Below are positions 1 through 32,143 of a DNA stretch of 32,143 nucleotides, in pieces. This DNA comes from a virus, in the IMG/VR virus record IMGVR_UViG_3300045988_128600; one strand, 5' to 3'. Position numbers and translations under genes: made by a program. How positions within the stretch are numbered: the stretch's first letter is position 1; each line of letters opens with the position of its first letter. Under the pieces are notes generated by a model. That model saw nothing but the letters and a program-made list of their open reading frames with translations. It was not told where the DNA came from and ran no database searches.

Positions 1-1
1 G

Positions 2-3000
2 AATGGAACTATAACAGTAGATTAGTTCTTGAAAAAAGTAAATAATGTTGTCACTAAAGAAAATTTAATGGCTGATGCTACATCTAAAGCAGCAACTGTT
101 CTCGAGGATGACTTTGGTAAAAAAGTTAAAATTAACGGTGAGGATTGTCAAAAGCTTGCTGAAGATATGACTGAAGTTATTGTAACAACAGATAAATTAA
201 AAACTACTAATAAGCAAGTTGCTGGGTCTTATGAAAAAATAAAAGCTGCAATTGAAAATTATAAAAATGCTACTGGAGATTTAGGGTAGAAATTAATTTC
301 TATGGTTAATGGTTTTTCTTCATTGGCTATGGGATTGGCTTCCATTAAGAGTATTTTTGATACTTTATCTGATGAAGATATGTCATTTTTTGATAAATTT
401 TTATCAGTTAGTATATCTTTAAGTATGGGTATTTCTATGACCATTTCTGGCTTATCTACTATGACTAAAGCTTATAAAGAATTGGCAGAAGCTAAAACTT
501 TAGATAATATAAAGACTTCGCTTAATACGGCTATTACAGAAATTAATAATGTGGTAAAAGCTTAGGCAGCCGCCAGAACAGGAGCTCAAACAGCAGCTAC
601 AGATAGATAGGCATTGGCTGAAAGCAAACTTACAAAAAATATAATATTGTAGAATGCCGCTTGGTTAGTCCGTAATAAACAGATGTCCGCAACAGCAGCT
701 CTTGGATTAAGTTTAGCTGGTACTATATTAGTTGTAGTTGCAGCTGCAGCAGCTTTAGTACTTATATCTAAAGCAGTTTATAATTCTATTCATAAAGAAG
801 AAATAGCGGCTGAAGCAGCAGCTAAAGCGGCTTCAGATCTTGGTAATGCTTATGATGAGTGTCGTGAAAAGTATCAGCAAATGATTGATGAGTTTAATGA
901 ATATAAAGATGCCATAGATGCTTTGGATAATTTAACTAAAGGAACTCAAGAATATCGTGATGCTTTAGAGGAAGCTAATCAAAAGGCTTTAGAATTAATC
1001 CAAAATAATCCTGATAAATTTAATAAAGATGATTATTATTGGGATGATAATAAATTAGTTATTAAAGATACAGCTATGTCTCGTGTAGCTGAAACCAGTA
1101 GACAAGAGACTGTAGATTTATAGGCTACTTCTGCTATGGCTAATGCCAATAATGCTCAAGCATAGGCAAATTTATAGAAAAAAAATCTTGTCGATACTGT
1201 TACTGGTTCTTTACGCAACACAACTGGCGTAGATAAAACTATTGATGCTTATTTAAATAGCGATAGAGTTGCTGTTGATAAGGAAGATTTAAAAGATATC
1301 CTTAATCTTGATAACGATATAGATGATAAGGCTTTAGTTAATGTCCTTTGGCGCAATATTGATGCTTTAAATGAGTTAAGAAATACCATGGATGGGGTTG
1401 AAACCTCTTTTGATCTTGCTAGTAAAACCGCTGCAAGAGCACAATGGTCCGGATCTGGTAAAGAAAATACTAAAGCTGGAAAAATGGCGCTTGAAGGTGG
1501 CGGAAGATTATATAATAATCTTTATGCCGAGGGAGAAAATACTGTTAAAGGTTATTCATTAAGCACTAATTGGGCTGCTTATGAAAAAATGAATAATTTA
1601 AATTCTCTAAAAGGATATGAACGTTCTATTAAGAGCGATAAAGTTGAATATAGCTATTATGATGAGAATGGTGAAAAGATAACTTAGGAAATCAATAAAG
1701 AAGCTATTCAAATCGCGGCCGCAACCCAATATGCTAATGATAGAATTGGAGAAGCTTTAGATAGCTTATATCAAAATATTGCTAAAGCTAATAAAGATGG
1801 CCTTGATAGTGTAGGGAAATATTTATCAACAGAAAATTTTGATAATATGACAAAAGGCGAGCTTGAACAATTTTAGGGATTAACTGATGATTAGTTAAAA
1901 GAATATGGAATTGATAAACAAGCTATTGAAGAAGCTAAGAAAGTTGTATTTGATGAAATTGATGGTCTTAATGAAGCTATGAGCGATTAGATCACTGTTG
2001 GAGTGAATAAGACTTTAAAAGAAAATATTTAGAATTTTGGCTCTGAAGGTAAAGATGCCTATATTAGTGCTATCAATCAAATTGGTGAATCTATTGATTG
2101 GAATGCTTTGTCTCCAGAATCTTAGGCTGAAGCTTGGAATAAAATTTCTAATATTAATTGGTTTGATTTTGATGCTCAACGTCAAGCTGAAACTCTAATT
2201 AAAGAAATGGGCGGAGATGTTTCTGTTCTTGGAGATAATTGGGATAAAGCTTTTAGCTAGATGCGCAAAGCTGGAGATGTCGTTCCAGTATTAACTGATA
2301 TCAAAGAACGCCTTGATAAAATAGATAATATTACTAAAGATATGAAAATCGGTAAGATTTTAGAAAAAGAAGATTATGATACTTTAGTAAATTATAATAG
2401 TGAATTGGCAAGATATTTTGCTATTTTATCTGATGGGTCTGCTGTTTTTGTAGGTGATCCTCTTGATTTTCAGTAGATGGTTAAATCCACTAAGCAGGAT
2501 GAATTAAGTAGAACTATAAGTGGATACCAAAATGCTATTGATTAGTATTATGCGGGAGCTGAAGAACTTAAAAAAGCGGGTGGATTAGATTAGATTCGAG
2601 AAGCTGGTTCTGAAAATGTTAATAATCAATTAGCATTTTTAAAGACTTAGAATTATGATGAAACATAGATCTCTGATTGGATTGGTAAGCTTGCTAATTC
2701 TAGAGGATAGGATATTGACACTTTAAAAGCTATCGCTGAAGCAGTTAATGAAGTTGGTGACTCTTTCTTATCTAGCAAAGGTAATATAGAACAATATACA
2801 GCAAGTAGTCAATAGGCTATGAATGAATTGGCAATGACCGCCGACACTGCTCAAGAAGCAGAAGAAATGCTTAAAAATGGCGGTATCAATGAAATGGCTT
2901 ATAATATGAGTGCCATGCAGCGTATGTCTAGTGAAAAATGGGGAGATTTAGATCCTACTGAAGTAAACAAGTATGCTGACTCTTTGATGAAAACTGCTAA

Positions 3001-6000
3001 AAAATCTGAGTTATTAAGTAATGAGCTTGAAAATAATAAAGAAGCTGCTGAAGACGTTGCTCTTTATACCATGAAGATGAATAATGGTATAGAGAAATTA
3101 AGTGATAATTTTGATGGATGGGCTAATGTATTAAAGAAATCTGATTCTGCTTCACAAGAGTATTATGATGCAATGGTTGATATTAAAGATGCCATGTCTA
3201 ACGTTTTAGGTGTTTCAGAAGAATTTTTAAGTGATGATTTTATTATCAATAATTTAGATGATATTGCATTAGCGGCAAATGGTGACGCTGAAGCTATTGA
3301 TCGTTTAGCTTTAGCAGCCAGTAAAGATATTGTTATAAACTTAGATTTTGAAGATGAAACAACAAAACAAGAAGTTTTAAGTTTGTATGATGATTTGATG
3401 GCTGAAATGCCCGATCTTGAAGTTGGAGCTACTTTAGATGATAAAGAGTTCTTAACAAAACTTAATAATTTTGTAAAACAATCAGGAATGAGTGTTGAAC
3501 AAGCTTAGGCTTTTTTCAATAGTTTGGGATATGAACCAGAATTTGTAACAGATACAAAAACTGTAAAAAGAAGTATTCCTCAAGAAAGAACTCATACGGA
3601 TTATGAAATTACTGACGGAACTATAGATATTTTAGGGTAGGAATGGCACATTCCTACAATAGACAGACTTACAACTACTAGTGTTAGTGATTACGTTGAT
3701 GTAGATGAAAAAATTCAAGTTCCTGCTTTTGGTACAGATAATCCATAGGTAAAATCTTTAACTAAAAGATCAAGTGGAATAATGAACAATTTTTCAAGTG
3801 CCAACCCTGGAGCTAAAGGTTCAGGAGGCAAAGGGGGAAGTAAAAATAAGCCAACCAAAGAAGCTCTAACTAAAAAAAGCGATGTTGTTGATCGTTATAA
3901 AGAAATTACTGATAATATCAATGATACCACTCGTGCTTTAGATAAAGCTAATAAATCGGCAGATAGACTTTGGGGTAAGGCTCATCTTGATGCGATGGCT
4001 AAAAGTAATAAATTAACTTTAAAAGAAATTGATTTATTAAAACAAAAGCAAAAAGAAGCTTAGGCTTATTTAAAGACAGATAAAGCTACTTTATAGCAAG
4101 CTGCGAAAAAAGCTGGAATTACTTTCACATTTGATGAAGATGGTGACATTTCTAATTATACTGATTAGATGACTAAACTTTATAATTAGCTCATAGCTGC
4201 TTAGAATAAAGCAAATTCTTTTTCTACAAAAGATGCTCAAGACGCTTATAAAGAAGCAACTTTAGATCCGATTCAAGAGAAAATCAATGAGTTGAAAGAT
4301 GCTATTAAGCAATATGAAGATACAAGAGATTTAGTCGAAGAATTAACTGATGATATCCAAGATAAAATAAACGAATGGCAAGATAGAAATTATCAAATGC
4401 TTACTTATGAAGTTGAAATAAAGGTTCAATTAGATGAAAATGATACTAAAAAATTAGAATATTATTTTGATAAATTAAGTAATAATATTTATAAAGCCGC
4501 TGAAGCTCTTGGATATTTACAAGGTCAATTTGATCCAGTAATTAGTCAATTAGGAACTTATGAGAATTTCTATAGTCAGTTAAATAACGCTTATTCTAAT
4601 GGAGAAATTTCTCAAGAAAATTATATCGAAGGCTTACAAGACGTGTATGATAATACATTAGATAATTTAAATGCTTTGTAGGATTTAGATAAAGAAATGC
4701 TTGAATATTATGGTAATACTATAGATTTAGCAAATGATGAATTGTCTAAATATACAGATCATATGGAGCATTTGACTAGTGTATTGGATCATTATCGTTC
4801 TATTATTACTTTGTTAGGTAAAGATAAAGATTATGATAAAGTTTTATCAGTTTTAAATGGAACTGCTTAGACTAAGAAAAATAATTTTGATACTTCTAAA
4901 CAATGGTATGAAAGCTTGAAGCGTGAACGTGATGCAGCGGCCGCAGCTTTAGCCAGTTCAACTGATGAGGCTGAGCGTGAAGTGCTTCAAAAGAATTATG
5001 ATGCTATATTAGCTGCATTCGATGAAGCGGAAGAGGATATGCTTTCTAAAGCTGAAGAATATGGCGAAGCATTAAAAGAAATTCTTACTACAAAGATGGA
5101 GCAAGCTGCGGATGAAATGAATAAGCAATTAAGCACTACTAAAGTAAGTATTAATGGTAATAACTTTAATATTTCTGGTTGGGATGCTTTAAATGATGCT
5201 TTGGATAGAATGTCTTCTTATCAAGATGAATATTTAACAAAAACTAATTAGATTTATGAAATGAATAAACTACTTAATAATGTTAATTAGGCTATTGATA
5301 AAACAAATAATCAAGCAGCTAAAAATAGATATCAGCAATTTACTAAAGAGATTGAATAGTTAAGAGATAAAGATAAATTAAGTCAATTAGAATTAGAAAT
5401 TGCTTAGGCTAAATATAAAGTGCTTGAAGCGCAAATCGCGTTAGAAGAAGCTCAAAATGCAAAGTCTACAGTTAGATTACAACGTGATAATGAGGGTAAT
5501 TTTGGTTATGTGTATACCGCAGACCAAGAGAAAGTAAATGACGCGCAATAGGCTTTAGCAGACGCGGAAAATGATTTATATAACATTCGTCTTGATGCGA
5601 CAAATAAATATGGTCAACAAAAACTTCAATATGAGAAAGAGTTGGCTGAAAAACTTGCGGAACTTGATTAGAAGGCTGCGGAAGACGCGGTTTATCGTGA
5701 GACTACATATCAACAAGAACGCGCATTAGTAATTCAACAATATACTGATTTAATTACTACTGCTGGAAACCTTTACGCGAAAGCGCAAGAAGAGGATAGC
5801 AGAGTCGTTCAAGATGCTTGGGTAAATTCTTTTGATATTATCAAAGATAATAGTAATAGTTGGAAAGATACTATTACTGAAAATACTAATATTATCAATG
5901 ATACATTTAAAGAATGGCAAGACAGTATGGATGAAATTAGTAAAATTGTTGGTGATGATTTAAAAGATACTCAATAGAAAGTTAAAGATGTTACTGATGA

Positions 6001-6766
6001 AAGTAATAAACTTTATCAAGAAGTATCTAATAGAGTTATTCCTGCTCTTGAAAGCGAGTTAAGTTCTGTCCGTAGTGCTACTGAAGCTTGGGCACAACAT
6101 CGTCAGCAATTACTTGATACTATTAGAGCTTATGAAGAGCTTTTGAACGCTATTCAAGCGACATTGCGCGCTTAGAGCGGATTTGGTAGTAATAGTGATG
6201 AAGATACTGACTGGGCGGCTATGATGGGTACTGTGGCTTATGGTTCAGCAGAATATAATTAGTATAAAAATATTCGTGATGTCAGAATCGCGAATGGTAA
6301 AAAAATCAATTATGATACTACTGCTAGAGTTGATGCTTATTATAAATTATTAAGTGAAGGAAAAATTTCAGGTTTGCCGAATGGGAAATAGAATTTTACT
6401 CAACTTACTGATGAAGAATGGCGAAAACTTGTTGGATTTAAAAGTGGTGGTTATACTGGCACTTGGAATGATGATGGAAAATTAGCGTTCTTACATTAGA
6501 AAGAATTAGTTCTTAATGCTGATGATACAGAAAATATGTTAGCTTCTATCCAATTAGTTAGATAGATCGCGAAACAATTAGATTTCAATAGTCAACAAAT
6601 TTCTACTCTTTCTTCTTCTGGATTTACTGTTAGTTCTCAAGATGGAACATTAGAATAGAATGTTAGAATTGAAGCTAATTTCCCGAACGCTACTGATAGA
6701 TATGAAATTCAAGAAGCATTTAATACATTGGTTAATGTAGCTTCTCAGTATGCCAATAGAAAATAA
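2..6766 (+). CDS. Tail tape measure protein, 5'-partial (at least 2255 codons), translated with TAG as sense
   Basis: Frame 2 is open from nt 2 to the TAA at 6764-6766 with no TAA or TGA; only in-frame TAG codons occur (e.g. 23-25, 287-289, 563-565). The track ORFs 29, 302, 683, 1388, 2261, 2819, 3782, 4292 and 4916 are all frame 2. It has hydrophobic TM-like segments (683-790, 302-470) and Ala/Glu/Lys/Gln-rich coiled-coil. The C-terminus reads GGYTGTWNDDGKLAFLH(Q)KELVLNADDTENM, typical of siphophage TMPs, and a terminator follows directly. Confidence 0.8.
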
Positions 6767-6772
6767 AATTAA

Positions 6773-6808
6773 GGGTGAAGTCTTATGGGCTTCACCCTTT
6801 TTCTTTTT
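6773..6808 (+). terminator. Rho-independent terminator after the tape measure gene
   Basis: GGGTGAAG (6773-6780) pairs with CTTCACCC (6790-6797) around the loop tcttatggg. A T-run tttttcttttt follows, 6 nt after the TAA stop. Confidence 0.7.
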
Positions 6809-6878: not shown

Positions 6879-6881
6879 ATT

Positions 6882-9800
6882 TTGGCTGATAACGCACTAA
6901 ATATTCAAGAAAGTTTATGTCAAGCAATGAGTATTATTGCTAATTCAAGTGTTGATAAAGTTAAATTTGATAGTACCATTGAATGTACTATTATTGATGC
7001 AACTGATAAACTTATTGGTAAGTATAAGGTTAAAAATGAATCTTATGCAGAATTTTATGCTTATTCCCAAATAACCACTTATAACAAAGGCGATAAAGTG
7101 TATGTATAGATTCCAAAAGGAGATTATAATAGCACTAAATTTATTGTCGGTAAAAAGACCGATAAAAATGAAGATAAACCATATAATTTTGTTAATCCTT
7201 TTAATACTTTTATTGATTTAACTGGTAATTTCTTTATTGCCAAAGATAATAATAAAGAAGTTTGGAGTATCTTAGCTAATGGCAATGAAGAGGAAATTGA
7301 AATTACTCCAAATGGCGGAATTACCTTTACTGATGAGCAATAGGGATGTACGCGGTTGGGGCTGCGTGCCGATTTCCGCGCCTGGCTTGAAACGCTCGGC
7401 GTAGTAAGTGGTAATTATGGATTAAAATTAAATATATATGGTATTAAAGATGATACTGCGGACAATATTAAAAAAATAGAAAATAGTATTAAAAATAATG
7501 GAGAAATCCCTTTAATTGCATCTATTGACTTAGATACTAATGATATGTATGGCAATCCTTATAATTTTGAAGGATATTATTCTCAAGAAATTGTTATTGA
7601 TACTAGCGCAGTAGCTAAAATATATAATATAAAAATATTTTTATATCAAAAAGGTAATTTTAAAGATAGTAATAATAATTTAATTAGTTATGCTAATGAT
7701 TTCAATATGTCAATTCCGCCTAACAATATCTTTGTAAAAGATATATACATGGGACTGGGTATTTCCGCTGATGAGATAGAAAATGAATATGTAAGATTGT
7801 ATTCATTAGATGGAAGCACTTATGTAATTGATGATAAAGGTTAGATTGATTCTAAAACTATTAAATTGAAATGGGTTCATTTTGATGAAGATGGCAATAG
7901 AGTTCAAATAACTGAGCATAAAAAAGATGATGCTTTTGAAGTTCGTTGGTATATGTATGAATTTGGAGCACCATCCGCGGACGAATATTCTGGTGTCTAT
8001 TGGACTGCGATTGAGGATAATAAAAATAATTTTTATTATTAGCTAAAACCGCGCTCTAATAAAAATCAAGAATAGGTTAAAGTAATTATTTTATATAATG
8101 GAAAAGTTTATAGAAGTAATATAATTACTTTTAATAATGAAAAACAAGTTCCTAATGATGCGACTATTGATAGCTTAAATGCTTTATCTATTCATTGTGA
8201 AGATTAGACTAATGGTAATTATTTAATTTATAATTAGGCTAATTATTTGATGAATAGATCAGATGGAAAAATTAGTCGTAAATTAACTTTACATTTTGAT
8301 TCTAAGACTTATGCTATTAATAATGGCATAATTGGTAAAAATTAGAATGGAGAAAGTAAATTAGTTGAAGCTTAGAGAGTAATTTGGCAGATTCCTATTA
8401 AGAATACTATGCTTAATTTTGGTATTAAAGATGATGGAACTGATGCTACTTATAAAGAAATTATTATTGATTTAACTAATGAAAATGTCAATGTTTCTCC
8501 TGGAGAATTTTCTTTAAATTATACTATTAATACTTTTTATAGTAGTAATAAATCTAATAATACTGTAATTGCTAAAGTAGAAAAAGATGGTATTGTTTAT
8601 ACCGCCATTAAAGATTTCACTTTTGGATAGGCAGGAACTAATGGTACTGACTGTACTTTAGTAATTGATATGATAACTCATGAGAATTTAAATAATAAAA
8701 TATTTACTGCTATAAAAAGTGGAGTAAGAGATAATTATACTTTTAGAGCTTAGTTATATGATAATGAAGGTAAAGAAATCGCTGATTTTAAAAATTGTAA
8801 TTGGACTTGGAGTTTTATGACTGGATCAACGGTTAATAATGTTGATTTATAGAATACTAATAATTAGAATTGTGCGTTAAGGGTTAATACTACAAACTCT
8901 ATAATGAATAATTTAATTATTTTATAGGTAAAATTATCTGGTTGGGGAGATTATGATTTAACTGCTTATTATCCAGTTCCTATTACGACTTTAGATAATG
9001 CTTATATAAATGGTCCAACAGAGGTAATTTATTTAAGTAATGGCGAACCTGTATTTTCTAAAGAGCCTTATAAATTATTTATAAATGGGGAAGTAGATGA
9101 AACTGCGACTTGGAGTATTTATCCCACTGGGTCTACCGATAAATTTATTGGGTAGATTAAATATAATGATAAGAAAAAAGAATATAGATTAAGTCCTATG
9201 AATTTTTATGTTGATGGTGTAAGTACTTATGGAGTCCAAGGGAAATAGGGAAGCAATGTAGTTTGGAGCCAACCTATCTTAGTTGTTTAGAATAAATATC
9301 CATCAGCAATGGTAAATAAATGGGATGGATAGTTAAATATAGATAGTGATAATAATTTTATCGGTGTTGCTTAGATCGCGGCCGGTAAAAAAGAAAATAA
9401 TAATACATTTACTGGTGTCCTAATGGGGTCTTTTGGTGATAGTAATGTTGATAGTAGTCTTAGTAAAAACACTGGTGTTTATGGATATTATCAAGGTAAG
9501 TAGGTTTATGCTTTAAAAGATGATGGAACTGCAACATTTGGTAAATCTGGAAATGGTTAGATTGAAATTAAAGGCGATTCTGGAAAAATAAAATCTGCTG
9601 GTTATGATAATGGTAATGGTCTTTTAATTGATTTAAAAGATAGTAAAATAGATGGTAAAAGTAATAGCAATAGTGTTTTTTTATTAAATAAGACTAGCCC
9701 TTATTTAAAAATTACTGATCCAATTAATAATGTAATTTTAATGAATATTGGAAGCGATAGTTATTATTTACAATCAAAAAATTACACTTCTTCTACAGGG

Positions 9801-10289
9801 ACTTATTTTAATTTAGCAACAGGAAATATTACAACAAACAGTATTACTGTAAATAGTGGAACATTTAAAGATGATATTATTATTAATTATACAGGTAGTA
9901 CTGGTAGCGGATGGACTTATGGAGATCAAAGTTTAAATTATATTTTAGATTAGATTGGAAAAGCCGCCAAAGAAGCTAGCGATTTGGCAACAGCTTCTAT
10001 CACATGGACTCAAGATATAGCTAATGCTTAGACAAGAGCAGACGAAGCTATTAACCAATTAACATATGTAAGTCAAATTCTTAATTATAGAAATGGGTCA
10101 GGAAATATTTATTTACATTATTGGAACCAAGAATCTAGCGCTAGATTTGTTGTTTAGAGCAATGGAACTGTCGGTATGATAGGAGGTACAGGGTATTATT
10201 TAAATGTAACTGATAATTCTATTTATTTACGAGGTCCAGTTGTAATAAATGGTTCATTAACGCTTAATGGAAAAGAAATTACTGGTTGA
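6882..10289 (+). CDS. Large tail-tip/baseplate structural protein (1135 aa; Dit/Tal-position gene), TTG start, TAG read through
   Basis: Frame 0 is continuous from TTG 6882 to TGA 10287-10289 with about 25 in-frame TAG codons. The track ORFs 6882, 7356, 8409 and 9741 are all frame 0. It sits directly downstream of the TMP with a strong SD. The sequence is Asn/Thr/Gly-rich and beta-rich, and the C-terminus reads IYLRGPVVINGSLTLNGKEITG. Confidence 0.75.
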
Positions 10290-10308
10290 AAAAAGGAGAA
10301 AAAGGAAA

Positions 10309-10485
10309 ATGAAAGAACAAGATATTAATTTTTTAAAAGTTTTATATAATACTCTCTCTTTAGTATCAACTAAAGGAGAAGATACTATTCTTATGGGAGA
10401 GTGTTTAAAACAATTAAGAGATTTTACAAATAGATTAGTGGATCTTCAAGAGGAGAAGAATAACGAAAATAATTAGGAGGGATAA
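10309..10485 (+). CDS. Small hypothetical protein (58 aa), predicted helical
   Basis: ATG 10309 is preceded by the SD aaaaggagaaaaagga. It reads through TAG 10474-10476 to TAA 10483-10485. The alternative ATG at 10267 (same frame) lacks an SD and overlaps the upstream gene, so it is disfavoured. Confidence 0.5.
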
Positions 10486-18291: not shown

Positions 18292-18325
18292 AAAAGGTTT
18301 GGTCTTAATAGGCCAAACCCTTTTA
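18292..18325 (+). terminator. Rho-independent terminator
   Basis: GGTTTGG (18296-18302) pairs with CCAAACC (18313-18319), with a further possible C:G pair inside, then TTTT. Confidence 0.65.
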
Positions 18326-18372: not shown

Positions 18373-18954
18373 TTGCCTAATACATTAAATAAATATGTAA
18401 AATTTGTCAGAGGTTCTAAAACCGCTTTTGAAAATTTAGGGACGAAAAGAGACAATGATACTTTATATTTTATTTATGGAGAAAATGATTCTTCTGGAGA
18501 ACTTTATTTAGGTAGTCGTCTAATTTGCGGTGGAATTAGTTCCGCAGGTAAGTTAAGCGATTTAAGTGATATTGTTCTTAATGAAGTTAAGACAAATCAA
18601 GTTTTAATTTATAATGAAGAACAAAAGAAATGGGTTAATTAGGGTTTAGAAAATAATGAGACTTTAATTAATTCTATTGTTGAAAAATTATCTACAGAAG
18701 AAAATTTAGCTAAATTAGCTCCTGTTTTTAAGGGCACAGTCCCAGGTTTAGTTCCAGTTTCTTTACATGAAATTAAAGGAGAACATATTCTTACTGATGC
18801 AGGTACATGGATTAATATGCCAGTAGGAACATTAACTTAGGGAGATATTGAAACAATTAATATAGCTAATAAATATTTAGTAGATAAAGGTCCTGATAAT
18901 TTGGTAACTCGTGTTGAAGCAGTTGAACAAACTGTTTCTTGGACTGATATTTAA
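18373..18954 (+). CDS. Small fibre-associated protein (193 aa) with the shared N-terminal anchor motif
   Basis: TTG 18373 lies 9 nt after the SD AAAGGAG. It has one in-frame TAG at 18640-18642 and a TAA at 18952-18954. The N-terminus VKFVRGSKTAFENL...LYFIYGENDSSGELYLGSRLI resembles the common phage tail-fibre / Mtd-N-type N-terminal domain. Confidence 0.65.
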
Positions 18955-20630: not shown

Positions 20631-20691
20631 GGGCAATACTATTTAATAATAAATATAATTTTTTCTATTTTATATAGAAGAATGTTTTTAT

Positions 20692-20728
20692 GGGGAAAGA
20701 TGAAATATTCTTTCCCCATATTTTTTTT
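20692..20728 (+). terminator. Rho-independent terminator
   Basis: GGGGAAAGA (20692-20700) pairs with TCTTTCCCC (20709-20717) around the loop tgaaatat, followed by an 8-T run. Confidence 0.7.
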
Positions 20729-20748: not shown

Positions 20749-23700
20749 ATGTCTAAGATACGTTTTCGTCCTGTATAGGGTCCAGAAAAAAAAATAAAAG
20801 AATATCCTCAAAGCGATGGATATTTTTATGTGGCAACAGATACAGGCCGAGTTTATTTAGATACGGCAACTGAAAATAAAATGCCAATAGGGTCTAGTGG
20901 TGTTCAGGTAATTTACGGTACAGATAATACTGTAGAAATTGAATATGATGCGGATGAAAACCCAGTGGCTTATTTAATTCTTTTATCAAAATTATCTATA
21001 ACAAATTGTCATATAGATGATTTAATTTTAAATTTAGACGGATGTTTTTATCGAATTTTAGGATTTGCTTTAAATGAAAACCGCGAAGAATGCGCGAGAT
21101 GTGAAAAATTAACTGTCGCCGGGGCAGGCGGTGGCGGAGAAGGAGACTCTGAACAAAAAGTTTTAGGAACTGTTTCTTTAACAAGAATTCCACCCGATAG
21201 TCCTGTTGATGTTTTGAATGAAGAAAATGTTAAAGTAAAGGTATTGGTTAAATGTAGAACTGTTGGAGGAGTTCCACAATCTTCGTCTGTGCAAGGAATT
21301 ATAACTATAAGTGAAATTAAAAGTGCTACAGAAAAAGAAATTTATTATACTTCTCCTCCTACTACTTATGAGCACAATATTCCGCAAGAAATTGATTTAA
21401 CTAATATTTTAAGAAATTCATGTTCTAGTGAAATTAATTTTAGTATTTATTATAATCCTGATAAAGAAAATAATAGATTTTAGAAAAGCTCTGATACTAT
21501 TAATATTAATAAACATCATCTTTCTTTTAGTTGGAAAGAAAGTAGTTTTAGTAATGATAGTCCAGTTGACAATGGACAAATATCTGTTAGTTGGTTAATG
21601 TCTGAAGATATCGCCAGATCTGTTGAAGTTTATTTTGATGATTATTTAGTTTTAGATAGAACTTATAGTGATACTGATTCTTCTTCTGAAGATTCTTTTG
21701 TTATTACTCCTGATACAAATATATTAGGGACTGATAAAGTTTCTACTTTAAAAAATTATTTTACTCATGGTGAGCATATAATAAAAGCAAAGTTATATTT
21801 AATGAATAATTCTAAAAAAGGTGCAGGAACAGATTTTATTCAGAAAGAAATCGTTATTCAAGAACCAGGTAATAAAATGCCTTTAATTTGGGTACAAGAT
21901 TTTAAAACAGAATATTATACTTATGAGACAATAAGAATTCCTTTTAAAGTATTAGATCCAAATAATAATGGAGCTTTTATAACTCTTTATAAAAATGGTG
22001 TTCAAGTAGGAACTAGAGAATTAGATAGTTCGCAAGTTAGAGAATGGCAATATTGGGAAATTACTAATTTAACTGTAGATGATAGTTCTTATTATACTAT
22101 TAAAGTTGGTACTGATCCTTATTCTTATTCTCGTAATTTTAATTTTACAATTTTAATTGACCCTTTAAGAGATATGAAGTTAGTAAAAAAAGATAATTTA
22201 AAGGTTAATTTTATAGCTACTGGTCGTTCTAATTCAGAAGGAAAATTAGGTCGTGAAACTTATTTAATTAATAATAATAAATATGTAGAATTTAAAAATT
22301 TTAATTGGTATAATAATGGTTGGGTTTTTGATGAAAATAATACGACTTGTTTACGAGTAAGCAATGGTGCTGAAGTATCTATCCCAGTCGGAAAAATGGC
22401 TTTTAAAGATGAATCATCATCTGCTACTATTGAGATTCAATTTAAAATAAAGAATCCTCAAAATTATGCTAAAGTTATAACTAAATATACTAGATATAAA
22501 GTAAGTAAAGATAATTGGGAAGATAATGATGCTTGGGATAAATTTAAAGCCCAAAATAAATATCTTAATTATGATGAGTTTTTAACTAAAGAATATTTAC
22601 CAACAACTAATTATACTTATGATGATTTAGAATATAATAAAATAGAACAAGATTTTAATTTAAAGAATTTAGTTTGCGCATATGGTAAATTAGGGAATTC
22701 TGTCTCTCCTGGTATTTATTTTAGTCCATAGGATGCTGTATTTACAGCTAACGGGGCTCAAGAAACAGTTTCAGTTGATTTTATTGAAAATGAAATGCTA
22801 AATCTTTCATTTGTTTATACTAAAAAGAAAAGTGATATAGAAGGCGGAAATTCTAAATTATTAGAAATTTTTATGAATGGCGTTTTAACTAGTGTTGTAC
22901 GTTGTAGTAGTGATGTTTGGAATATTGATTCTGATTTCATTAAATTTATGTCTAATACTTGTGATATTGATATTTATAGTATTAGAGTTTATGATACAGA
23001 TTTAACTATTCCTGAAATAGTCCAAAATTACGCTTTTGATAAGAGAAGTATAAAACAGTGGGACCAAAAAGATCTTTATGAAAACAATACGGTATTAAAA
23101 GATGATGTATTTTCTTATACTAAAATGAAAAAGTATAATGATAATCATCCAACTGAACCTTTAATGCCCTATATTATTTTAAGGACTACTAAAAATAATA
23201 AAAATAATACGGATAATAGATTACCTTATTCTAAAGCAAAAGGAAGCTAGGAAGGAACTTTAGAATTTGTTAACACTGCTTTAGACGCTGCTTACAATAG
23301 TGGTGAATTAGAAAAAGTTGCTATAAAAGAAGGATGGAAACCTGTAATCGAAAAAAATGAAGAAACATAGGAAGAAGTAGTAAAATATACTGTGGTATAG
23401 AATTATTATATGCATCATTGTCCTAGTTTTATAACTGTTCTTAATGGATGTACTTTCCAAGTTCAAGGTACTTCTTCACAATTTTATCCTCGTCGTAATT
23501 ATAAAGCTAAATGCAAAGAATCAATGCTTTTAAATAGAGGCCCATTTGCTGAAGACTATAAAAAAGCAGGAGACTAGTATAATGAAGATATAACTAAACA
23601 TCCTTGCTATTTAGAGTGGTTTTATATGGATAATAAAACAGTTGGTACTACTAAATTTACTTTAAAAATAGATTTTATGGAATCTTCTGGAGATTATAAT

Positions 23701-26700
23701 AGAGGATTTGCTAATTTAGTTAACGAGATTTATTCTAAACATCCAGTAGAAGACTATAAGGATTCTTTTGATAATTATAATTTATATGGAAATTTAGAAG
23801 ATTATCGCACTTCGGTAAAAGGATTCCCCGTTTTAGCTTTCCATTATATGTCCAACGATGATAATACTTACTCTAAGGAAAATAGTAATAACTGTATTTT
23901 TATTGGCAAATATAATATGTTATTAGATAAAGGCTCAGATGAATGTTTTGGATTTAAACCAAATAAAAAGATTTTACAAAATCAAATTACGGGCAATCCT
24001 AAAGTAAGAGATATGGCAGAATGTTGGGAATTTTAGAACAATTCAAGAACTTTTTGCTCTTTCCGCGACCCTTGGAATCGTTATAAATTATCATTTAGAA
24101 ATCCTAATATGGTAATCCCTCCAGATGGAGATAATCCTGAATTAGTTAAAGGCGCTCCAAAAGTCGTTGATTCTTTTGAACCAAGATATAATCCAAATGA
24201 TGATTTAATTGCTGATAATTTATTTAGTTTAAAAGAGTGGCTTGATCCAGATGGGACATAGACTAAGATTGTTGGGGAAGAATTAAAAAATGTAGCCCCA
24301 GATAGACTTACTAAAAAAGAAATAGTTGATGAAATTACTGGTATAAAATCTATTAAATGGATTATAAAGAACCCAGACGGAGAAGAAATAGAATTTAATG
24401 TTGCTAATGATACAAGTAAACAAGAATTACTTTTAGCTTTAATGTCTAACTGGGAAGACGCAGTTAGTTGGGTATGGAGTACTTGTTTAGATTGCGATAT
24501 TGAATTTGATGATGGATAGAAATTAAAAATTCCATCTATGGGCATTTATACTAAAGTTGATGGATTAGCTGAAGCTATATATATTCCTAATGTCTATTAT
24601 GTTGAAGATGGAGTTAATGAAAATGGAAAAATTATTTATAAATTAGCTTCTGAAGAATATAACTCTGAAACAAGATATTATAAGTAGATTAATGAAAATA
24701 ATAGTTTAAAGTATGTAAGCATAAAACTTACAAATAATTCAGATAAAGTATATAAAGCAAATATTTATTATCTTTTAACTGATAGTAAAAATGAAATTTA
24801 TGTATTAAGTTCTGATAAATTTAATTCTTCTTTAGACTATTATTCTTTTAATAAAAATGAAGAAGGTATTGAGGAAAGATGGAAATTACCTAATCCAGTA
24901 ACCTATGGCTCTATTACTTATACTAAAGATAGTAAAGAATACCGTCAAGCTAAATTTAAAAATGAATTAAGTAATTTCTTTGATATTGAATATTTAGCTT
25001 CTTACCTTTTAATGACAGAAATTTTTGAATGTTATGATTCTCGTGGAAAAAATGCAATGTTTGCTTCTTGGGGACCTCAAAAAGGCAATATTCAAAAATC
25101 TACTGGTAAACAACATTATGTTTGGTATCCTATCTTTTATGATATTGATACTCAATTAGGTATTAATAATACTGGTATCCCATCCTTTGAATACTATATT
25201 GATGCTACTGAAGAAGGAAGTTTTTCAACTAATGATAGTGTTCTTTGGAATAATTTTTACACTTTCTTTAGAAGCAAGATGGTGGATAAATATAAGCAAT
25301 TAATGGGAACTCAAAATAATTCTTATAGTCCAAATGATTCAAGAGTAAATAAAATTTTTACTAAAGGAGCAGGAAGCGGAGCTAAAAAGAGTGATATCGT
25401 AGATAAATGGTATCGTACTGATCCATCGGTATTTCTTGATAGTTATGCAGTTTTGGGAGACCGACCAATTATTGCTTTAAGTTTAGACGAAGAATTTAAG
25501 TATATTATTCCAACAAACTCTAAAGCTGAAAATATGCCAGTGTTTGGTCGTTTAACTGATGGAGGTTCATATGAGGTTGAAGATGATAAATATTTTTATG
25601 CTTTGCAAGGAGATAGAAATCTTTATCGCGCGCAATTTTTAGCTAATCGTCTTAATTACATTGACTCTTGGTTGACTGTTGGCACTTATGCCAGAAATGG
25701 CGGAGGAAGCTATATTAGAAGTCGTATTTCTGCGAACAATCCTAAGAATACATCAGATAAATGGATTGAAGGTACTAACACTCAAAATATGGAAGGATTA
25801 ATTACAAATTCTCAGTATTGGAAAAATGGTGCTGAATTCGAAGAAAAAAATCATATGTTTGATGGTGAGTATTGGATTAACATGGAACCCGCGCGTAATG
25901 CCTATGTTACTATTGGTACAGATGGAGAGAATTTTCCTTCAAAAAAATATAATGGTTTAGAACCGGTTAAATATGTAGCTCCTGATATTAAAAAAGGAAT
26001 TATGAGTAGCGGTAATTATAAAGAACAATTATATTACATTTATGGAATGGATCAAATGAAATCTCTTGGTGATTTAAGCAAATTATATTTCCAAGAGTTT
26101 GCAGCTGAAGGAAAAATGGAGCGTTTAACTGATTTATTATTAGGATATGATGGAAAAGATGAAAGCGGTAATGAATATTTTAATAATGATGTAAATGACT
26201 GGTCTTTTTCAAAAGGCGGAATGCCTTTACTTAAAGAAATGAATCTTTGTAATATTAACTTTAAAAAAGACTAGGGGGCATTAGATTTAACTAAAAGTGA
26301 AAAACTTGAAAACTTTAGAAATACTAAATCTAATATCCCGAGAGTTAATTTTGCTCCTGGAGTAGCTTTAAATACTTTATATTTAACCAATCGAACAAAT
26401 TATTTAAGTTTAATAGAAGCTAATTTATTAACGAAATTAATAACTAACTATATATATCCTGAAAAAAATCCAATTACTGGAAAACTTGAGGTCTCAGATG
26501 AAAATCGTGGTTTATATATTCAAGATCTTACTGATGCTGAAGAAGGAAAAGAAAAAACCGAGATAAGAACTTTTGATATTCGAGGCGGTAATTTAGGTTA
26601 TAATAGTTATGAATTGTTACGCAAATATATTTCAGCTAGTAAAAATAGTAAATTAGATTTATCTAATTGTATTATTAATTTAAATAATGTTTAGTGGAGT

Positions 26701-28494
26701 CCATATAGACTTCTGACTGACACTAAAACAACTCTTGATCCAGAAAGAAAATCTTATTATAGAGATAATGGACATTTTTAGTTGGTAGCTATTCCAAAAG
26801 ATTAGGTTAATAAAATAACAAAATCTGATATTAAAAATAATTAGATTTATTATTTAGATACAATAAATGGAGACAATAATAATCATAGTATAATAACTGA
26901 TTATAATTTATTAATTGATATTTATAATAATTATAGGGGTCTTAATACTAATAAGCCAGAAATATCTGGTGTTATGTATATAAAAAATAATAATTAGATT
27001 GATGAATCTATTATCTAGAATGAGTTATAGGATAAATACCCTGATTTAATAATTTTTGTAGAAAATGTTAAACAAGAATGTTCTGCCAAGTTTATTTTAG
27101 AAAAAGAAGATATTGATGGAGTGTTAATTTAGGAGGTTCTAAAAACTTAGAAATTACCCTTATCTAGCAGTAAATTCTTTGATGATCCAACAAATTCTTC
27201 TAGCGAAACTTATATTTCTTTTGGTAGTTTACAAGAAAAAATGCCAACTTATGATTTTAAAGGTTGGGAAGATGATACGGGAAAATTAGTAATTACTGTT
27301 GGAAAAAACGTAAATGAAGAAGATGTTGTTTTAAAAAGCGATTGGAATTCTTTGTCTTTACAATCTAATAAAATGGATTATATTTTTAAAGCGAGATTTG
27401 AGCGCAAATCTTATACGATCACTTTCGTTAATGGTGACCGCGTTATTAATGATTCAACTGTAAAGAAAGTATTTAATTATGGTGAAAGAATTACTGTTCC
27501 AGAAGAATTCTATTATTTTAATAATACAGAAGTATCTGATTTACCAGAAGGCGAAGACCCATTAGAATGGACTTGGAAATAGGCTGGATGGGCGGATAAA
27601 GATGGAGTTAAAATTGATTTAACTAAACAATTAGCCTATGCTGACCGCGAATTCTACGCTGTTGGAGAGCCGATTAGTGTTTATGATAATATTTTAACTA
27701 ATGATTCTACTCATAAATATTATGATATTATAAATTCTGATGGAGAGTTATCGTTTGTAATGACTGACTTAGCTAAGAATTTAAAAGGCAAAATTACTTT
27801 ACCTACAACTTATAATGGTTAGCCAATTACAAGAATTAAATATAGCCAAGTTAACCCATCAGCAGCAGTTGGTATTCAAGTAAATCCTAATATCACTGCG
27901 ATATTTTTTGCTCCAAAAGATAGCAATAAAATTTCTGTAATAGATGATTATGCTTTTATTTTAGATAGTGGGTTAGAATATTTCCAATTTAGTGATTGTT
28001 TAAAGAAAATTGGTACTAAAGCATTTTATCAATGTCCTTTAAGTCGTAATAACATAATTCCTTATTCTTCTTCTACTGAAGGTTTGACTTTTGGAGCTCA
28101 AGCATTTTATCAAAGTAAGATGGGTTCTTATTCTCCTTATAATTTAATTATAGAGGGATGCAAAGACGGTATTCTTAATTTTGATATAAATGCATTTTCT
28201 GGTCAGACAATTTTAAATATGTCTGGTAATTAGTTTAAAGGTTATACTGGCGCTATTCAAGTATAGATTGGTACTAATAAACACCCAATTAAACAAATTA
28301 CAGCAGATAGCTCTGGCAATATTTTTACTCCTCGTCAAACTGGTATGCCTACAGTGGCTAATGGATACACAGGTCGTTTTAGATATTATTATGTTGCTAG
28401 TTATGGTGAAAGTATTAAAAATACTTTACACAATATTTATGAAGCAATGATATCTAATAGAGCGAATTTTGAAGAAGAGCCTATTGTAAAGTGA
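20749..28494 (+). CDS. Giant multidomain tail fibre / adhesin (about 2581 aa), TAG read through
   Basis: ATG 20749 lies 7 nt after the SD AAAGGAG. Frame 1 is open to TGA 28492-28494; I checked this codon by codon across 21481-21600, 24034-25014 and 26272-28494. The track ORFs 20830, 21598, 22795, 23626, 25012 and 27241 are all frame 1. The N-terminus carries the anchor motif (IRFRPVQGPE...YFYVATDTGRVYLD). A LamG/ConA-like stretch follows (NSKLLEIFMNGVLT...CDIDIYSIRVYDTDLTIPEIVQNY). A CotH-like stretch is present (KNAMFASWGP...HYVWYPIFYDIDTQLG). The C-terminal part has BspA-type LRR-like repeats (IGTKAFYQCPL...LTFGAQAFYQS...FDINAFSGQTIL). Domain calls are by eye only. Confidence 0.7.
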
Positions 28495-28503: not shown

Positions 28504-28704
28504 ATGGAAAAAGAAATTGTTTATAGATATATGGGTTCTAATGGTATTATTGAATCTTCTATATAGTTGACAGGAATTCCTGCGACTACTTTGTATAGAT
28601 TAATAGCAGATTACAATAAGAAATTAACGAGAGATGGAAAAGAATTTTTTTCCATCTCTCCTTTAGTCCCTGAAAGTGAATTAAAAGAATGGTATGAGGT
28701 TTAA
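28504..28704 (+). CDS. Small protein (66 aa) with a helix-turn-helix-like segment
   Basis: ATG 28504 follows a weak SD (tgagga). It has one in-frame TAG at 28564 and a TAA at 28702-28704. The segment IQLTGIPATTLYRLIADYNKKL resembles an Xis/AlpA/MerR-type HTH. A strong terminator follows. Confidence 0.5.
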
Positions 28705-28740
28705 ATAGGCCAGAATACATTGATTTAAATATAAAAAAAA

Positions 28741-28782
28741 TTAGGTTAAATAGGAAAAGAAACTATTTAACCTAATTTTTTT
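28741..28782 (+). terminator. Strong rho-independent terminator, possibly bidirectional
   Basis: A perfect 13-bp stem, TTAGGTTAAATAG (28741-28753) against CTATTTAACCTAA (28763-28775), with the loop gaaaagaaa. It is flanked upstream by an 8-A run and downstream by a 7-T run. Confidence 0.75.
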
Positions 28783-28800
28783 AGAAAGGAAGAGATAGAT

Positions 28801-30477
28801 TTGATAGTTAAAAATGATAGTGTTATCGAACAAGCTAAATGGGAAGAACTTCAAAAGAAAATCAATACTTTAGCTAAAGATAATAAAATAAAAAACGTTA
28901 ATGGAAAAATCGTTGAAATAAAATCTATTGAAGACTATTATAGTAATATTACTGGTATCGTTCAAATGAAGAAGTTAGATCCATCTGTTCTTCGCATACC
29001 TTTAGATGAGCCTATTATAAATATAAATGCTGATACTCGTCAAATTGAATTAACTAAAGAATTTGGAAAAACTCAATTACTTACTGTTGAAAATGATCAT
29101 TTAGCAGAAACAATTTATTTTCAAATTGATAGATATTTTGATTTACAAGATTTAGCAGCTGATGATATTAAAATTTATATTTAGTATTATCTAAATGATC
29201 AAATTCAAGGTTATTCTGAAGCTATTTGCCCTGATATTGGTACTGCTGGAAAATTAATTTTTGGTTGGCAAATTAGTGATGAAGTAACTAGTGAATCTGG
29301 TACTTTATAGTTTTCTATTATTTTCTTCAAAAAGAATCCAAAAGATAATAATAATTTAATGTATGTGTTTAATACATTACCTGCGCAAATGGTTATCAAT
29401 AAAACTTTAGACATTGATGAAGATTTAGTTACTGCGCAACCTGTTGATTATTTAACTGGGTATTTAGAAAGTTTAATCGATTCAAAGAAATCCGCGGGCT
29501 TTGGAGTCCCTGATAATGTGGCTTTCTTGACAAGTATTTTAAATAATAAATCAGTTTATTTAACTGGTGATAAATTATATGCTTTAGCTTATAATGATAC
29601 TTTAAACAATCCAGATAATACTACTATTGAATATAAATGGATTTGTAATTATAGAGGAACTAATACTGAATTAAAAAATGGTATTGGTTATGAATACAAA
29701 AAAATTGTTGATGATAATAGTATCTTTAGTGGAGATATGGCTTATAATGAAAAATTGACCTATTTTACTAAAAATGGAGATACTTATATTAATAGTAGTA
29801 GTGATATTAATCTTGAAAATTATGTTGCTAAAAAGAATGACCTTTATTTAAAAGTTCAATATTGTGAAGTTGATGGATGCGGAAGTTATAGTGTGACAGC
29901 ATTTGGCGCAACCGCGAATCAAGTAAGTAAAGAAGTTAAATGGGCTGGATTAGCTATTTCTGTTGAAGGTATTAGCGAAGATTTTAAAATTATTCTTGAT
30001 CCCTCCCCTGATAATGGATGTTATTATGGCTCTTCTAATACAATTACTGCTATTGGATAGAATGATGAAGGAGTTCAATGTACTTATCTTTGGACAAAAA
30101 ATGGGTCTGAATTTAGTAATGAAAAAACTGTAACTTTAACTCAAGAAGATAATTACACTTTAACGGTTCATGGGTATAAAAATAAAGATAATATAGATTA
30201 TGGTCCAATTAATTTTACCAATTATTTTGACCCTATTAATTTAGTACCTACTGGTGAAGTAAAAACTGAAAATGGAAAATATATTGTTAATATCACTAAT
30301 ACTAGTGAGTTGGGAAATGGAATTTATGAATATTAGTGGAAAAATGCTGAAGGTGTTACTCAAATAACTACTTCTGGGACTAATAACGCAATAGAAATAA
30401 ATGAAAATATTACTCAAGTGGCTGTCATTATTAAAAAAGGTGAAAGAAATTCAAAGCCAGGAGTACTTACGATATAA
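28801..30477 (+). CDS. Tail fibre / baseplate protein (558 aa) with Ig-like C-terminal repeats, TAG read through
   Basis: TTG 28801 follows the SD gaaaggaag. Frame 1 is continuous to TAA 30475-30477, with the track ORFs 28801 and 29359 both frame 1 and in-frame TAGs at e.g. 29182 and 30058. The N-terminal 110 aa (DHLAETIYFQIDRYFD...) are paralogous to the next gene. The C-terminus (CTYLWTKNGSEF...YTLTVHGYKNKD) looks Ig-like. Confidence 0.7.
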
Positions 30478-30489: not shown

Positions 30490-31110
30490 ATGATAACTAA
30501 TCCAACTGATTATTATAGCGTTTTACATCAAATACAAGATGAAAATTTTCCAGTAAAATATCCAGCTCTTCCTGCTCCAGAAGATGAAAAATTAGTTTAG
30601 GTAAATTTAAATTCAAGGATTATTAGTAATGAAAATAATTATATTACAGTTGAAGGCGATCACGCTGCTGAAATTATTTATTTTGAAATAGATAGATATT
30701 TTGACACTATGGATTTAACTAATATGATGTGTATTATTCAGTATATTAATGCTGATAATGAAAAGCGCATTTATCCAGTTCCATATTATGACACTTTAAC
30801 TCATAAAGATAAAATTATTTTTCCTTGGGTTTTAAATTATAGTGCTACTAAAAAATCTGGCAATTTAAATTATATGATAACTTTTTACAAAATAGAAAAA
30901 GATTCTAATAATTTATTATATAATTTAAACACATTGCCAGCAAGCCTTTAGGTTTATTCTAAACTTAATTTAGATTCTATTGTAAAAGAAGAAGATTATT
31001 ATGTAATTGATGATAGCCAAGTAGTCCAACAAATTTGGGAACGTTTAGCTCGTTTGGAAGGATTTGTTGGTGGTAATGGGTTGGATGTTTATTGGATTGT
31101 TCTTGAATAA
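30490..31110 (+). CDS. Fibre/baseplate-associated protein (206 aa), paralogous to the N-terminal domain of the 28801 gene
   Basis: ATG 30490 follows the SD AAGAGG. Frame 1 runs to TAA 31108-31110 with a TAG at about 30598 read through. It contains GDHAAEIIYFEIDRYFD, against NDHLAETIYFQIDRYFD in the upstream gene. Confidence 0.7.
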
Positions 31111-31120
31111 ATAAACTAAA

Positions 31121-31160
31121 TGGTATAGAATTATTAATTAATTCTATACCATTAATTTAT
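31121..31160 (+). terminator. Hairpin terminator
   Basis: A perfect 12-bp inverted repeat, TGGTATAGAATT (31121-31132) against AATTCTATACCA (31140-31151), followed by T-rich ttaatttat. Confidence 0.6.
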
Positions 31161-31182
31161 AGAAAGGAGTTATTGAAGATCG

Positions 31183-32143
31183 ATGGCTCTATTTAAAATT
31201 TTAAAAGGAGACTCAAATAATTTAGTTTCCTATGATAATGCTGAAGTAGTTAATGGTAAAATTCCTTTTCCTGCCTTGGGTTCAGGAAAAACTTTATTTA
31301 CAACAGTAGATAGTACTCCTATTACAGAAGGATACGCTTATTTCACAGAAGATACTCATAAATTTTATATTGATACTAAAGACAAAAGATTAAATTTATA
31401 TACTGATCACGCGGATTATGCTACTTATGATGAAAATGGACGTAATTTAGCAGAATTATCAGAAGTATCTTATGAAAATATTGATGATACTGGAGGACAG
31501 ATTGGAGTAATAAATATTAATGGTATTGAATATCCTATTACTTGTCCTGCTGATATCGCTGGAAAAACTATAAACAAATATACTTTTGATGTTAGCGCCG
31601 ATTAGATGGTTTTTACTATTCCTTTTAATTTTAGTGATAGTAGTACACTTACTCTTTATTATAATGGTATTATGATTTAGGAAGCAGAAAATTATACTAT
31701 AGATGGTAATACTATTATTTTAAATGGTTGGAAAGGCAAACAAGGGGATTTTCTAACTGTAATGGGTATCGAAGGAGCAGCTGGAATTAATGTTGATGAA
31801 GATATTATTCGAATTTAGACTGAGTTAAATAAAGCTTTAGAAAAAATTAACTCTTCCACTGAAAACTTAATCTATAAAAATAAATCTAATATAATGACTG
31901 CTGATGGCAGAATTATAATGGATAGTAATTATGTTCCTACAACTGATATGGAATTAGCTACTAAAAAATATGTTGATAATGCCACTCCCCCTACGGTTGG
32001 AACTACTACTGATTATTCTATTTATATTGGATCTACACAACCTGCTTCTGGGACCGCTCCTTTAGTATGGATAGATACAACTGCTAAAACTGGCACTTTT
32101 AAATATAGAACTTCTACCACAGGTACTTGGACCCCTGTCCCCG
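31183..32143 (+). CDS. Tail fibre protein, 3'-partial (over 320 aa), TAG read through
   Basis: ATG 31183 follows the SD AAAGGAG with a 13-nt spacer. Frame 1 is open to the window end, with TAGs at 31603, about 31678 and about 31816. The N-terminus FKILKGDSNNLVSY...AYFTEDTHKFYID carries the anchor motif. An internal TDMELATKKYVDN segment is typical of fibre shafts. Confidence 0.7.

Follow-up and report, generated by a model that had tools for sequence, protein, structure and literature searches.

In-frame TAG is a conserved sense codon, probably read as glutamine, in the tail operon of an uncultured AT-rich tailed phage

The supE-type amber suppressor of Escherichia coli is a tRNA-Gln with a CUA anticodon that inserts glutamine at UAG. 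Lak, crAss-like, and other gut phages with genetic code 15 carry TAG in structural or late genes, stop at TAA or TGA, possess a phage tRNA(CUA), and show TAG opposite glutamine (Gln). For code-15 gut phages, metaproteomic validation (PMC9523058) and annotation surveys (PMC11210395) are available; TAG-to-Gln reassignment and suppressor tRNA genes (tRNA-Sup-CTA) have been reported for phAss-1 (PMC10607447), and theta ribozymes, which resemble that of the hepatitis delta virus (HDV), have been suggested to process phage tRNAs that lack an encoded CCA, above all amber suppressors, in phages with code 15 (PMC10879173). The current study deals with the IMG/VR virus record IMGVR_UViG_3300045988_128600, the whole 32,143-nucleotide (nt) stretch of which (29% GC) is called the window. 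It is the late structural (tail) operon of an uncultured AT-rich tailed phage with a genome of ~190 to 197 kb. We put the probability at about 0.92 that UAG would be translated as glutamine here (NCBI translation table 15), with UAA and UGA still terminating, a suppressor tRNA as the decoding agent, and a tail operon as the setting.

The window and its relatives share the above traits with the code-15 gut phages, but they differ from Lak phages (540 kb) and the crAss-like phages of Bacteroidota in genome size (~190 kb), GC content (29%), strong Shine-Dalgarno (SD) sites, and probable Bacillota-type hosts; moreover, their Gln reading is derived from sequence comparison, whereas code-15 gut phages have metaproteomic validation. 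The nearest described group is that of phAss-1 (proposed Phassvirus group, NCBI "Caudoviricetes code 15 clade"; OQ749652; PMC10607447), which has distant homologues of the first four window genes, g1 to g4 (25 to 42% amino acid [aa] identity), a very long tape-measure protein, TAG-to-Gln recoding with tRNA-Sup-CTA, a predicted Clostridia-type host, and kinship to Enterococcus phage EF1. However, the similarity is remote only, its genome measures ~136 kb versus ~190 to 197 kb, and its tRNA(CUA) sequences are different. Recoding, its tRNA basis, and the ribozyme have already been described, and the understanding of phage stop-codon recoding is unchanged by this case; the lineage itself is undescribed, with no more than a remote similarity to its closest described kin. 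It provides a well-resolved recoding example outside the crAss-like and Lak phages, and its relatives hold the whole recoding kit together, i.e., TAG-rich late genes, a TAG-free block, a suppressor tRNA, and a ribozyme for 3' processing.

Under table 11 the window consists of fragments only (22 open reading frames [ORFs] of at least 100 aa), and its plus-strand frames of at least 150 codons sum to 4401 aa, or ~41% of the window. With TAG as sense and only TAA and TGA as stops, 12 long plus-strand frames sum to 10,507 aa (~98%), while reading TGA as sense brought zero gain in the open-frame length of the plus strand. A codon-usage-scored gene call returned 14 ORFs, all on the same strand, with 136 in-frame TAG codons and neither an internal TAA nor an internal TGA. 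Frame 2 stays open between 2 and 6766 (2254 codons, 45 TAG, TAA at the end) and frame 1 between 20746 and 28494 (2582 codons, 25 TAG, TGA at the end), and the genes at 6882, 10487, 13344, 16011, 28801, and 31183 are likewise open only if TAG is sense. When the window genes are read in their two non-coding frames, 10.6% of the codons are TAA or TGA; frames of 2254 and 2582 codons without either cannot be due to chance. Among the 13 complete ORFs, nine stop at TAA, four at TGA, and none at TAG; the stops are followed by either an SD site plus a start codon or a hairpin, and AGGAG-type SD sites precede most gene starts.

The original prediction, made by a model from the letters alone, had claimed TAG as a sense codon across the operon, and this is borne out by frame structure and by the conservation and selection described below. 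All coordinates that it gave for open frames and genes were correct on recheck, its account of the gene ends holds for 13 of 13 complete ORFs, and its exclusion of code 4 (TGA as Trp) stands, with no in-frame TGA and four genes closed by this codon. Four of the hairpins that it named were flagged by a hairpin scan, while the one at 28741 was seen by direct reading only. A TAG density of 2 to 3%, similar to that of CAA, was overstated: TAG makes up 1.29% of window codons (2.0 to 2.1% in g1 and g2, ~1% in the other genes), about half the share of CAA (2.44%), whereas the rarity of CAG (0.22%) was correctly recognized. Two small TAG-bearing ORFs (10267 to 10485 and 28504 to 28704) were absent from its list, and the complete lack of TAG in the gene at 18969 to 20630 went unremarked. 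The features of the window are as follows.

2 to 6766, plus strand: g1, tail tape-measure protein, C-terminal 2254 codons with 45 TAG; TAA stop; 5' end cut by the window edge.
6771 to 6799, plus strand: intrinsic-terminator-like hairpin of 13 pairs plus a T-run, 5 nt past the g1 stop.
6882 to 10289, plus strand: g2, tail-module protein of 1135 aa; 24 TAG; SD site GGAGG; TGA stop.
10267 to 10485, plus strand: small ORF of 72 aa with an SD site and 1 TAG, from the codon-usage-scored gene call.
10487 to 13366, plus strand: g3, tail/baseplate-module protein of 959 aa; 10 TAG; phrog_30026.
13344 to 15650, plus strand: g4, tail protein of 768 aa; 9 TAG; phrog_1887 (tail protein).
15664 to 16008, plus strand: g5, 114 aa; 1 TAG.
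16011 to 18284, plus strand: g6, fibre-like protein of 757 aa; 9 TAG.
18296 to 18319, plus strand: terminator-like hairpin past g6, from the hairpin scan.
18373 to 18954, plus strand: g7, 193 aa; 2 TAG; weak match to PF24243 (Phage_tail_C).
18969 to 20630, plus strand: g8, fibre-like protein of 553 aa; no TAG, all 16 of its 16 Gln codons being CAA.
20689 to 20720, plus strand: terminator-like hairpin past g8, from the hairpin scan.
20749 to 28494, plus strand: g9, giant tail/fibre protein of 2581 aa; 25 TAG; weak match to BspA-type leucine-rich repeats at the C-terminus.
28504 to 28704, plus strand: small ORF of 66 aa with an SD site and 1 TAG, at 28564.
28739 to 28785, plus strand: AT-rich hairpin followed by a T-run, from direct reading of the sequence; unflagged by the scan.
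28801 to 30477, plus strand: g10, 558 aa; 4 TAG; N-terminal domain paralogous to that of g11.
30490 to 31110, plus strand: g11, 206 aa; 2 TAG.
31119 to 31153, no strand: palindromic hairpin of 15 pairs past g11, from the hairpin scan.
31183 to 32143, plus strand: g12, tail-fibre-like protein; 3 TAG in 320 codons; 3' end cut by the window edge.

TAG sites were compared with relatives of at least 80% nucleotide identity. At 39 of 111 covered sites TAG was found in every aligned relative, and of the single-nucleotide codon differences located beyond the first TAG of a gene, 67.5% were synonymous versus a random expectation of 20.9%, so the frames are translated past their TAGs. These results establish TAG as a conserved, selected sense codon. 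Fragmentation under table 11 is the single observation in favour of an artefact of sequencing or assembly, or of a standard-code prophage whose genes are decaying into pseudogenes. Such an origin is effectively refuted by the purifying selection past the TAGs, by the in-frame use of one of the three stop codons and never the others, by the same architecture in 19 or more independently assembled contigs and hundreds of database entries, and by the location of the TAGs inside conserved blocks rather than at domain ends. Chimerism and pseudogenization, which the original prediction had itself named as grounds for dismissal, were weighed and rejected.

The amino acid meaning of TAG emerges from its replacements. 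Among 236 exchange events at TAG, each site and alternative codon being counted once, 138 involved CAA or CAG, followed by codons for Lys (29), Glu (14), Asn (10), Ser (6), Tyr (4), and Trp (1), with none for Ile; the order of the non-Gln exchanges (Lys, Glu, Asn) resembles the non-synonymous spectrum of CAA/CAG codons. Conversely, some relative has TAG at 28% of the CAA sites and 70% of the CAG sites of the window, whereas no relative has it at any of the 546 TAT or 100 TGG sites, even though TAT is one mutational step away from TAG and CAA two. TAG is hence evolutionarily interchangeable with CAA/CAG. Both data sets speak against TAG being sense with a different meaning, i.e., Lys, Glu, Ser, Tyr, Trp, or Ile, e.g., by means of a class-II-like tRNA charged by seryl-tRNA synthetase (SerRS), an explanation to which we give a slim chance and whose favourable evidence is taken up with the tRNAs.

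An independent line of evidence comes from distant homologues of g4, for which the query was masked with X at each TAG and 114 homologues of less than 60% identity were aligned. The column of the TAG at 14520 (aa 393) contains Q in 113 of the 114, and also in the cultured, standard-code Enterococcus phage EF1; this near-invariant Gln column speaks against a different meaning of TAG. Pooled over all g4 TAG columns, Q accounts for 19.8% versus a background of 3.6%, the columns other than 393 being variable and polar. The only TAG that nrdD has in one relative corresponds to Q in T4 NrdD and one other solved NrdD and to H in a third. Gln thus stands opposite TAG, most clearly at g4 position 393, and without coincidence with domain ends, as the original prediction had anticipated. 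Since the listed translations evidently read through TAG already, a deep protein search with g2, which yielded only close relatives among the 120 best matches listed, is useless as an independent test of Gln. Taken together, the 138 of 236 exchanges, the g4 column, and the nrdD alignment support the predicted decoding: comparative data strongly favour Gln as the probable meaning of TAG and rule out Tyr, Trp, Ser, and Leu as the one under selection.

The decoding tRNA was located in the relatives. A paralogue of g12 elsewhere in their genomes pointed to a tRNA array ~80 kb from the tail operon. A downstream walk along this array brought up a tRNA(CUA) solely in a more distant subclade, and two exact-pattern scans with this first tRNA(CUA) family matched the more distant subclade only, leaving the near relatives unmatched. 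Upstream from a second fibre module, a tRNA(CUA) is located between tRNA-Val and tRNA-Tyr in nine of nine near-relative contigs fetched at this locus, all of which also have the tail module (g4 with 93 to 98% aa identity); more distant lineages have other tRNA(CUA) families. Two alleles occupy one locus with a common 3' flank, a 90-nt form with a 21-nt variable region, which is the commonest, and a 73-nt form with a 4-nt variable loop; a third form of 72 nt resides in another contig. The anticodon loop CUCUAAA and G73 are common to the three forms, and in those of 90 and 73 nt U1 does not pair with position 72. The identity rules of tRNA-Gln and glutaminyl-tRNA synthetase are consistent with G73, with U35, and with a 1-72 pair that is weak or absent; the unpaired U1, G73, and U35 may therefore be called compatible with charging by Gln, which is not proof of it. 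In the CUA anticodon, the probable insertion of Gln at UAG, and the weak or absent 1-72 pair with G73, these tRNAs resemble E. coli supE. However, supE is a mutant host tRNA, whereas here a dedicated phage gene is present, one allele of which has a 21-nt variable region, and unlike supE the suppressor body is not recognizably derived from a tRNA-Gln, namely, the phage tRNA-Gln(UUG).

Several points weigh against the favoured explanation. No tRNA was detected in the window by ARAGORN, and an Rfam scan of the window was also empty, so that the predicted tRNA(CUA) was met in the near relatives and its presence in the genome of the window is inferred from them. For a Gln tRNA, the 21-nt variable region of the commonest allele is unusual, with a superficial likeness to class II, and similarity to typed phage tRNAs assigned no isotype to the suppressor. 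When the TAG columns of g4 alone were scored with BLOSUM, Glu tied with Gln, and the total Gln content of TAG-rich and TAG-free gene sets showed no clear compensation. In the variable part of g9, TAA is aligned with the TAG sites at 23368, 23575, and 24259 in one to three relatives, which could be a local misalignment or a real truncation or split of the giant protein there. Finally, the expression timing and the "early" label of the TAG-free block discussed below are assumptions.

Some of these points bear on a meaning other than Gln. SerRS recognition can use a long variable region and G73, both of which the main allele offers, and the tie on the g4 columns would suit Glu. Trp, Ile, and Tyr isotypes have been predicted for a minority of phage tRNA-Sup (PMC10879173). 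In addition to the exchange counts and the g4 column, the replacement of the 90-nt allele by the 73-nt one, with its 4-nt variable loop, in genomes with the same TAG positions argues against this explanation. The lack of a tRNA in the window would suit readthrough without any phage tRNA, either by a host suppressor or by a host code with TAG as sense, the tRNA(CUA) of the relatives being dispensable or absent here; some recoded relatives of phAss-1 likewise have no detectable tRNA-Sup (PMC10607447). Its chances appear slimmer still, given the tRNA(CUA) in all nine near relatives, the other tRNA(CUA) families in more distant lineages, and the existence of TAG-poor and TAG-rich gene classes, which is unexplained if the host reads TAG constitutively.

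ARAGORN labels the suppressor "tRNA-Pyl", a call that reflects the anticodon only. A tRNA-Pyl is marked by a variable loop of 3 nt, a 6-bp anticodon stem, an atypical T-loop, and a small D-loop that lacks GG, whereas the tRNA(CUA) forms show GG in the D-loop, anticodon stems of 5 bp, and variable regions of 4 or 21 nt, with the T-loop TTCGAAT in the 90-nt form; pyrrolysine decoding was rejected. A "tRNA-SeC(tca)" called in two relatives (L089 and L092, 7660 to 7739) folds into a poor cloverleaf and is probably a false call, a remnant of an opal suppressor being possible.

The tRNA(CUA) alleles without an encoded CCA are followed directly, from the base 3' of the tRNA onward, by a 55-nt element (e.g., tRNA at L081:6831 to 6920, element from L081:6921 onward), which is absent behind the suppressor alleles that encode CCA (L053, L058, and L088). 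Its sequence pattern is GGTGCT...CCTCCTCGYGG...CTAATTTGTTT, and it matches the Rfam family HDV-F-prausnitzii with 26.1 bits, below the gathering threshold of 44. Direct reading gave a fold with a P1 that opens with a G-U pair, an HDV-like P3/L3 of ACC-UCCUCGC-GGU, a P1.1, a 7-bp P2, and a C at the start of J4/2 (in "CUAA"); this C and the first G-U pair are invariant. All 18 proposed pairs form in all three sequence variants, seven of them with compensatory changes, whereas controls with shifted ("slid") pairing had none. The element is accordingly predicted to be a minimal HDV-like (theta) ribozyme. It agrees with the published theta cassettes in its start at the base past a CCA-less tRNA(CUA), the nested P1/P1.1/P2/P3, the G1-U wobble, the J4/2 C, and the occurrence in a code-15 phage (PMC10879173); it differs in that it was found in the relatives of the window only and falls below the threshold of the one Rfam HDV family. 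Its sequence was not found in the part of the supplementary text of PMC10879173 that was available.

Three unrelated tRNA(CUA) bodies of 90, 73, and 72 nt are present at one locus (L075 to L081, L089, L090, and L092), each followed by almost the same ribozyme and flank, and judging from this arrangement, the tRNA body looks like a cassette that has been swapped at the suppressor locus. A bolder proposal, which we regard as rather unlikely, is that the suppressor body was exchanged at least three times within the clade in front of a near-invariant theta ribozyme, that a sister lineage recodes TGA, and that charging or regulation of the 90-nt allele follows a novel route. If true, the clade would offer nature's own series of suppressor variants against an SD-using, Bacillota-type background, the variable arm could be a regulatory or orthogonality element or charging could proceed via a non-discriminating glutamyl-tRNA synthetase plus GatCAB, and code switching in non-Bacteroidota phages would become open to experiment.

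The frequency of TAG depends on the gene class, as determined for the relative contig 118370. TAG amounts to 1.38% of codons in its tail module, 0.65% in its second fibre module, 0.5% in the minus-strand nrdD, nrdG, and dUTPase genes, and 0.03% (one codon) in a non-structural block of 3266 codons after the tRNA array. This TAG-poor block (positions 26852 to 38896 of the composite L081+L045+L051 of 118370) encodes an Eco57I-type methylase, DUF2828/DUF7788, a major-vault-protein-like product (shoulder plus vault repeat), and HNH proteins, and could comprise early genes or a recently acquired island. Since CAG reaches 1.32% in this block versus 0.15 to 0.22% in tail genes, many TAGs are suggested to have arisen through CAG-to-TAG transitions. 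A code-switch model for recoded phages was reportedly put forward by Borges et al. in 2022, and the distribution in 118370 fits the published picture of recoded codons concentrated late. The proposed comparison of early and late TAG use gave the difference between 1.38% and 0.03% in this relative, with the timing assumed. According to the resulting model, a phage tRNA with the anticodon CUA, seen in the relatives and inferred for the genome of the window, would decode UAG as Gln, after cleavage by the ribozyme at its own 5' end had freed the tRNA 3' end for the addition of CCA. From published models, the host machinery would suffice in unmodified form for the TAG-poor or TAG-free genes, structural genes rich in TAG would give full-length protein only after the suppressor tRNA has been made, and recoding might act as a switch or timer of late expression.

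At least 19 contigs of 85 to 197 kb in IMG/VR carry the same module with 85 to 97% DNA identity (g4, 93 to 98% aa identity), and the clade is common, since protein databases hold hundreds of full-length copies from contigs of ~190 to 197 kb. The stored products are full length although their loci fail to translate to them under table 11, so the collections evidently translate the clade through TAG already. Unless table 15 is used, the structural genes of these phages are shredded in annotation, which concerns hundreds of ~190-kb contigs in public assemblies. No close relative was found among the GenBank phages, where a megablast of 25 kb of the window gave no match.

The nearest GenBank relative of g3 and g4 is MT835469.1 (176,210 bp; 27 to 42% aa identity). 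Long open frames take up a fraction of 0.65 of this genome when it is read with the standard code, 0.70 if TAG is made sense, and 0.81 if TGA is; its g4 homologue has two in-frame TGA codons, and ARAGORN found only four tRNAs and no suppressor. MT835469.1 looks as if it recodes TGA rather than TAG, and related lineages may therefore use different stop reassignments. Code-4 phages (TGA to Trp) also recode a stop codon, as MT835469.1 seems to do, whereas the window has no in-frame TGA.

Clues to the host include the strong SD sites, the homology of tail genes to those of Enterococcus phages, an anaerobic ribonucleotide reductase, and ROOL and RAGATH-33 RNAs. A g4 copy with 96% aa identity is located on CAMELE010000001.1 (L096; 163,874 bp) in the metagenome-assembled genome (MAG) of an "uncultured Mollicutes bacterium". 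This MAG is a GTDB species representative and holds a second phage-like contig (L109); its contigs are either a host clue or the mark of a bin made largely of phage DNA. More distant g4 homologues come mostly from MAGs of Clostridia, Lachnospiraceae, Erysipelotrichaceae, and Oscillospiraceae, bins that may simply hold mis-binned phage contigs. The host is likely of the Bacillota type with a standard code. The predicted Firmicutes host is hence plausible in view of the SD sites, the Enterococcus phage homology, and the Bacillota and "Mollicutes" MAG relatives, all of which support it indirectly.

With respect to the individual genes, the full-length homologue of g1 (2740 aa), a neighbour of a g2 homologue, matches PF10145 (PhageMin_Tail). 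In g2, TAG provides 56% of the Gln codons, and full-length relatives with 77 to 94% identity are widespread in protein databases. Homologues of g3 occur in MT835469, phAss-1, and Enterococcus phage EF1; a deep search returned 2501 homologues of g4, and those of EF1, phAss-1, and MT835469.1 sit in tail modules. Both small ORFs occupy seeming intergenic gaps and have counterparts in contig 118370, that of the 72-aa ORF measuring 58 aa. Beyond the tape-measure and tail matches, Pfam and PHROGs assigned almost no function to the window proteins; g7, g8, and g12 have a common N-terminal motif, and judged by position and repeated N-terminal motifs, the remaining genes look like those of baseplate and fibre proteins. 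The sole large gene without TAG is g8 (P of ~0.002 before multiple-gene correction). Since its orthologue in 118370 has two TAG codons, the absence is probably due to drift rather than a mark of a separately regulated gene. On the strand opposite to the tail module and a short way downstream of it, 118370 encodes a protein with a response-regulator receiver and a LytTR-type DNA-binding domain (composite B, 29314 to 30030, within L037).

The second fibre-like module (L045:418 to 14919), which includes a paralogue of the C-terminal part of g12, splits the tRNA array of the near relatives in two, whereas the array is unsplit in the more distant subclade. A tRNA-Lys(UUU) is interrupted in the anticodon loop by an insert of 64 to 68 nt (L045:19109 to 19248; also in L044, L046, L050, L051, L054, and L056). 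It was missed by ARAGORN in default mode and scored 59.9 bits with Rfam; once the insert is taken out, the tRNA-Lys is perfect, and the orthologous loci of other contigs lack the interruption. The insert, whose length falls short of that of a group I intron, is tRNA-like, with a 7-bp acceptor stem, a T-arm, and a GCCA end. Further structured RNAs lie within the phage tRNA arrays, namely, RAGATH-33 RNAs at L045:17905 to 18033, L047:16734 to 16862, and L058:3298 to 3410 (124 to 139 bits) and a ROOL RNA at L058:799 to 1392 (320 bits).

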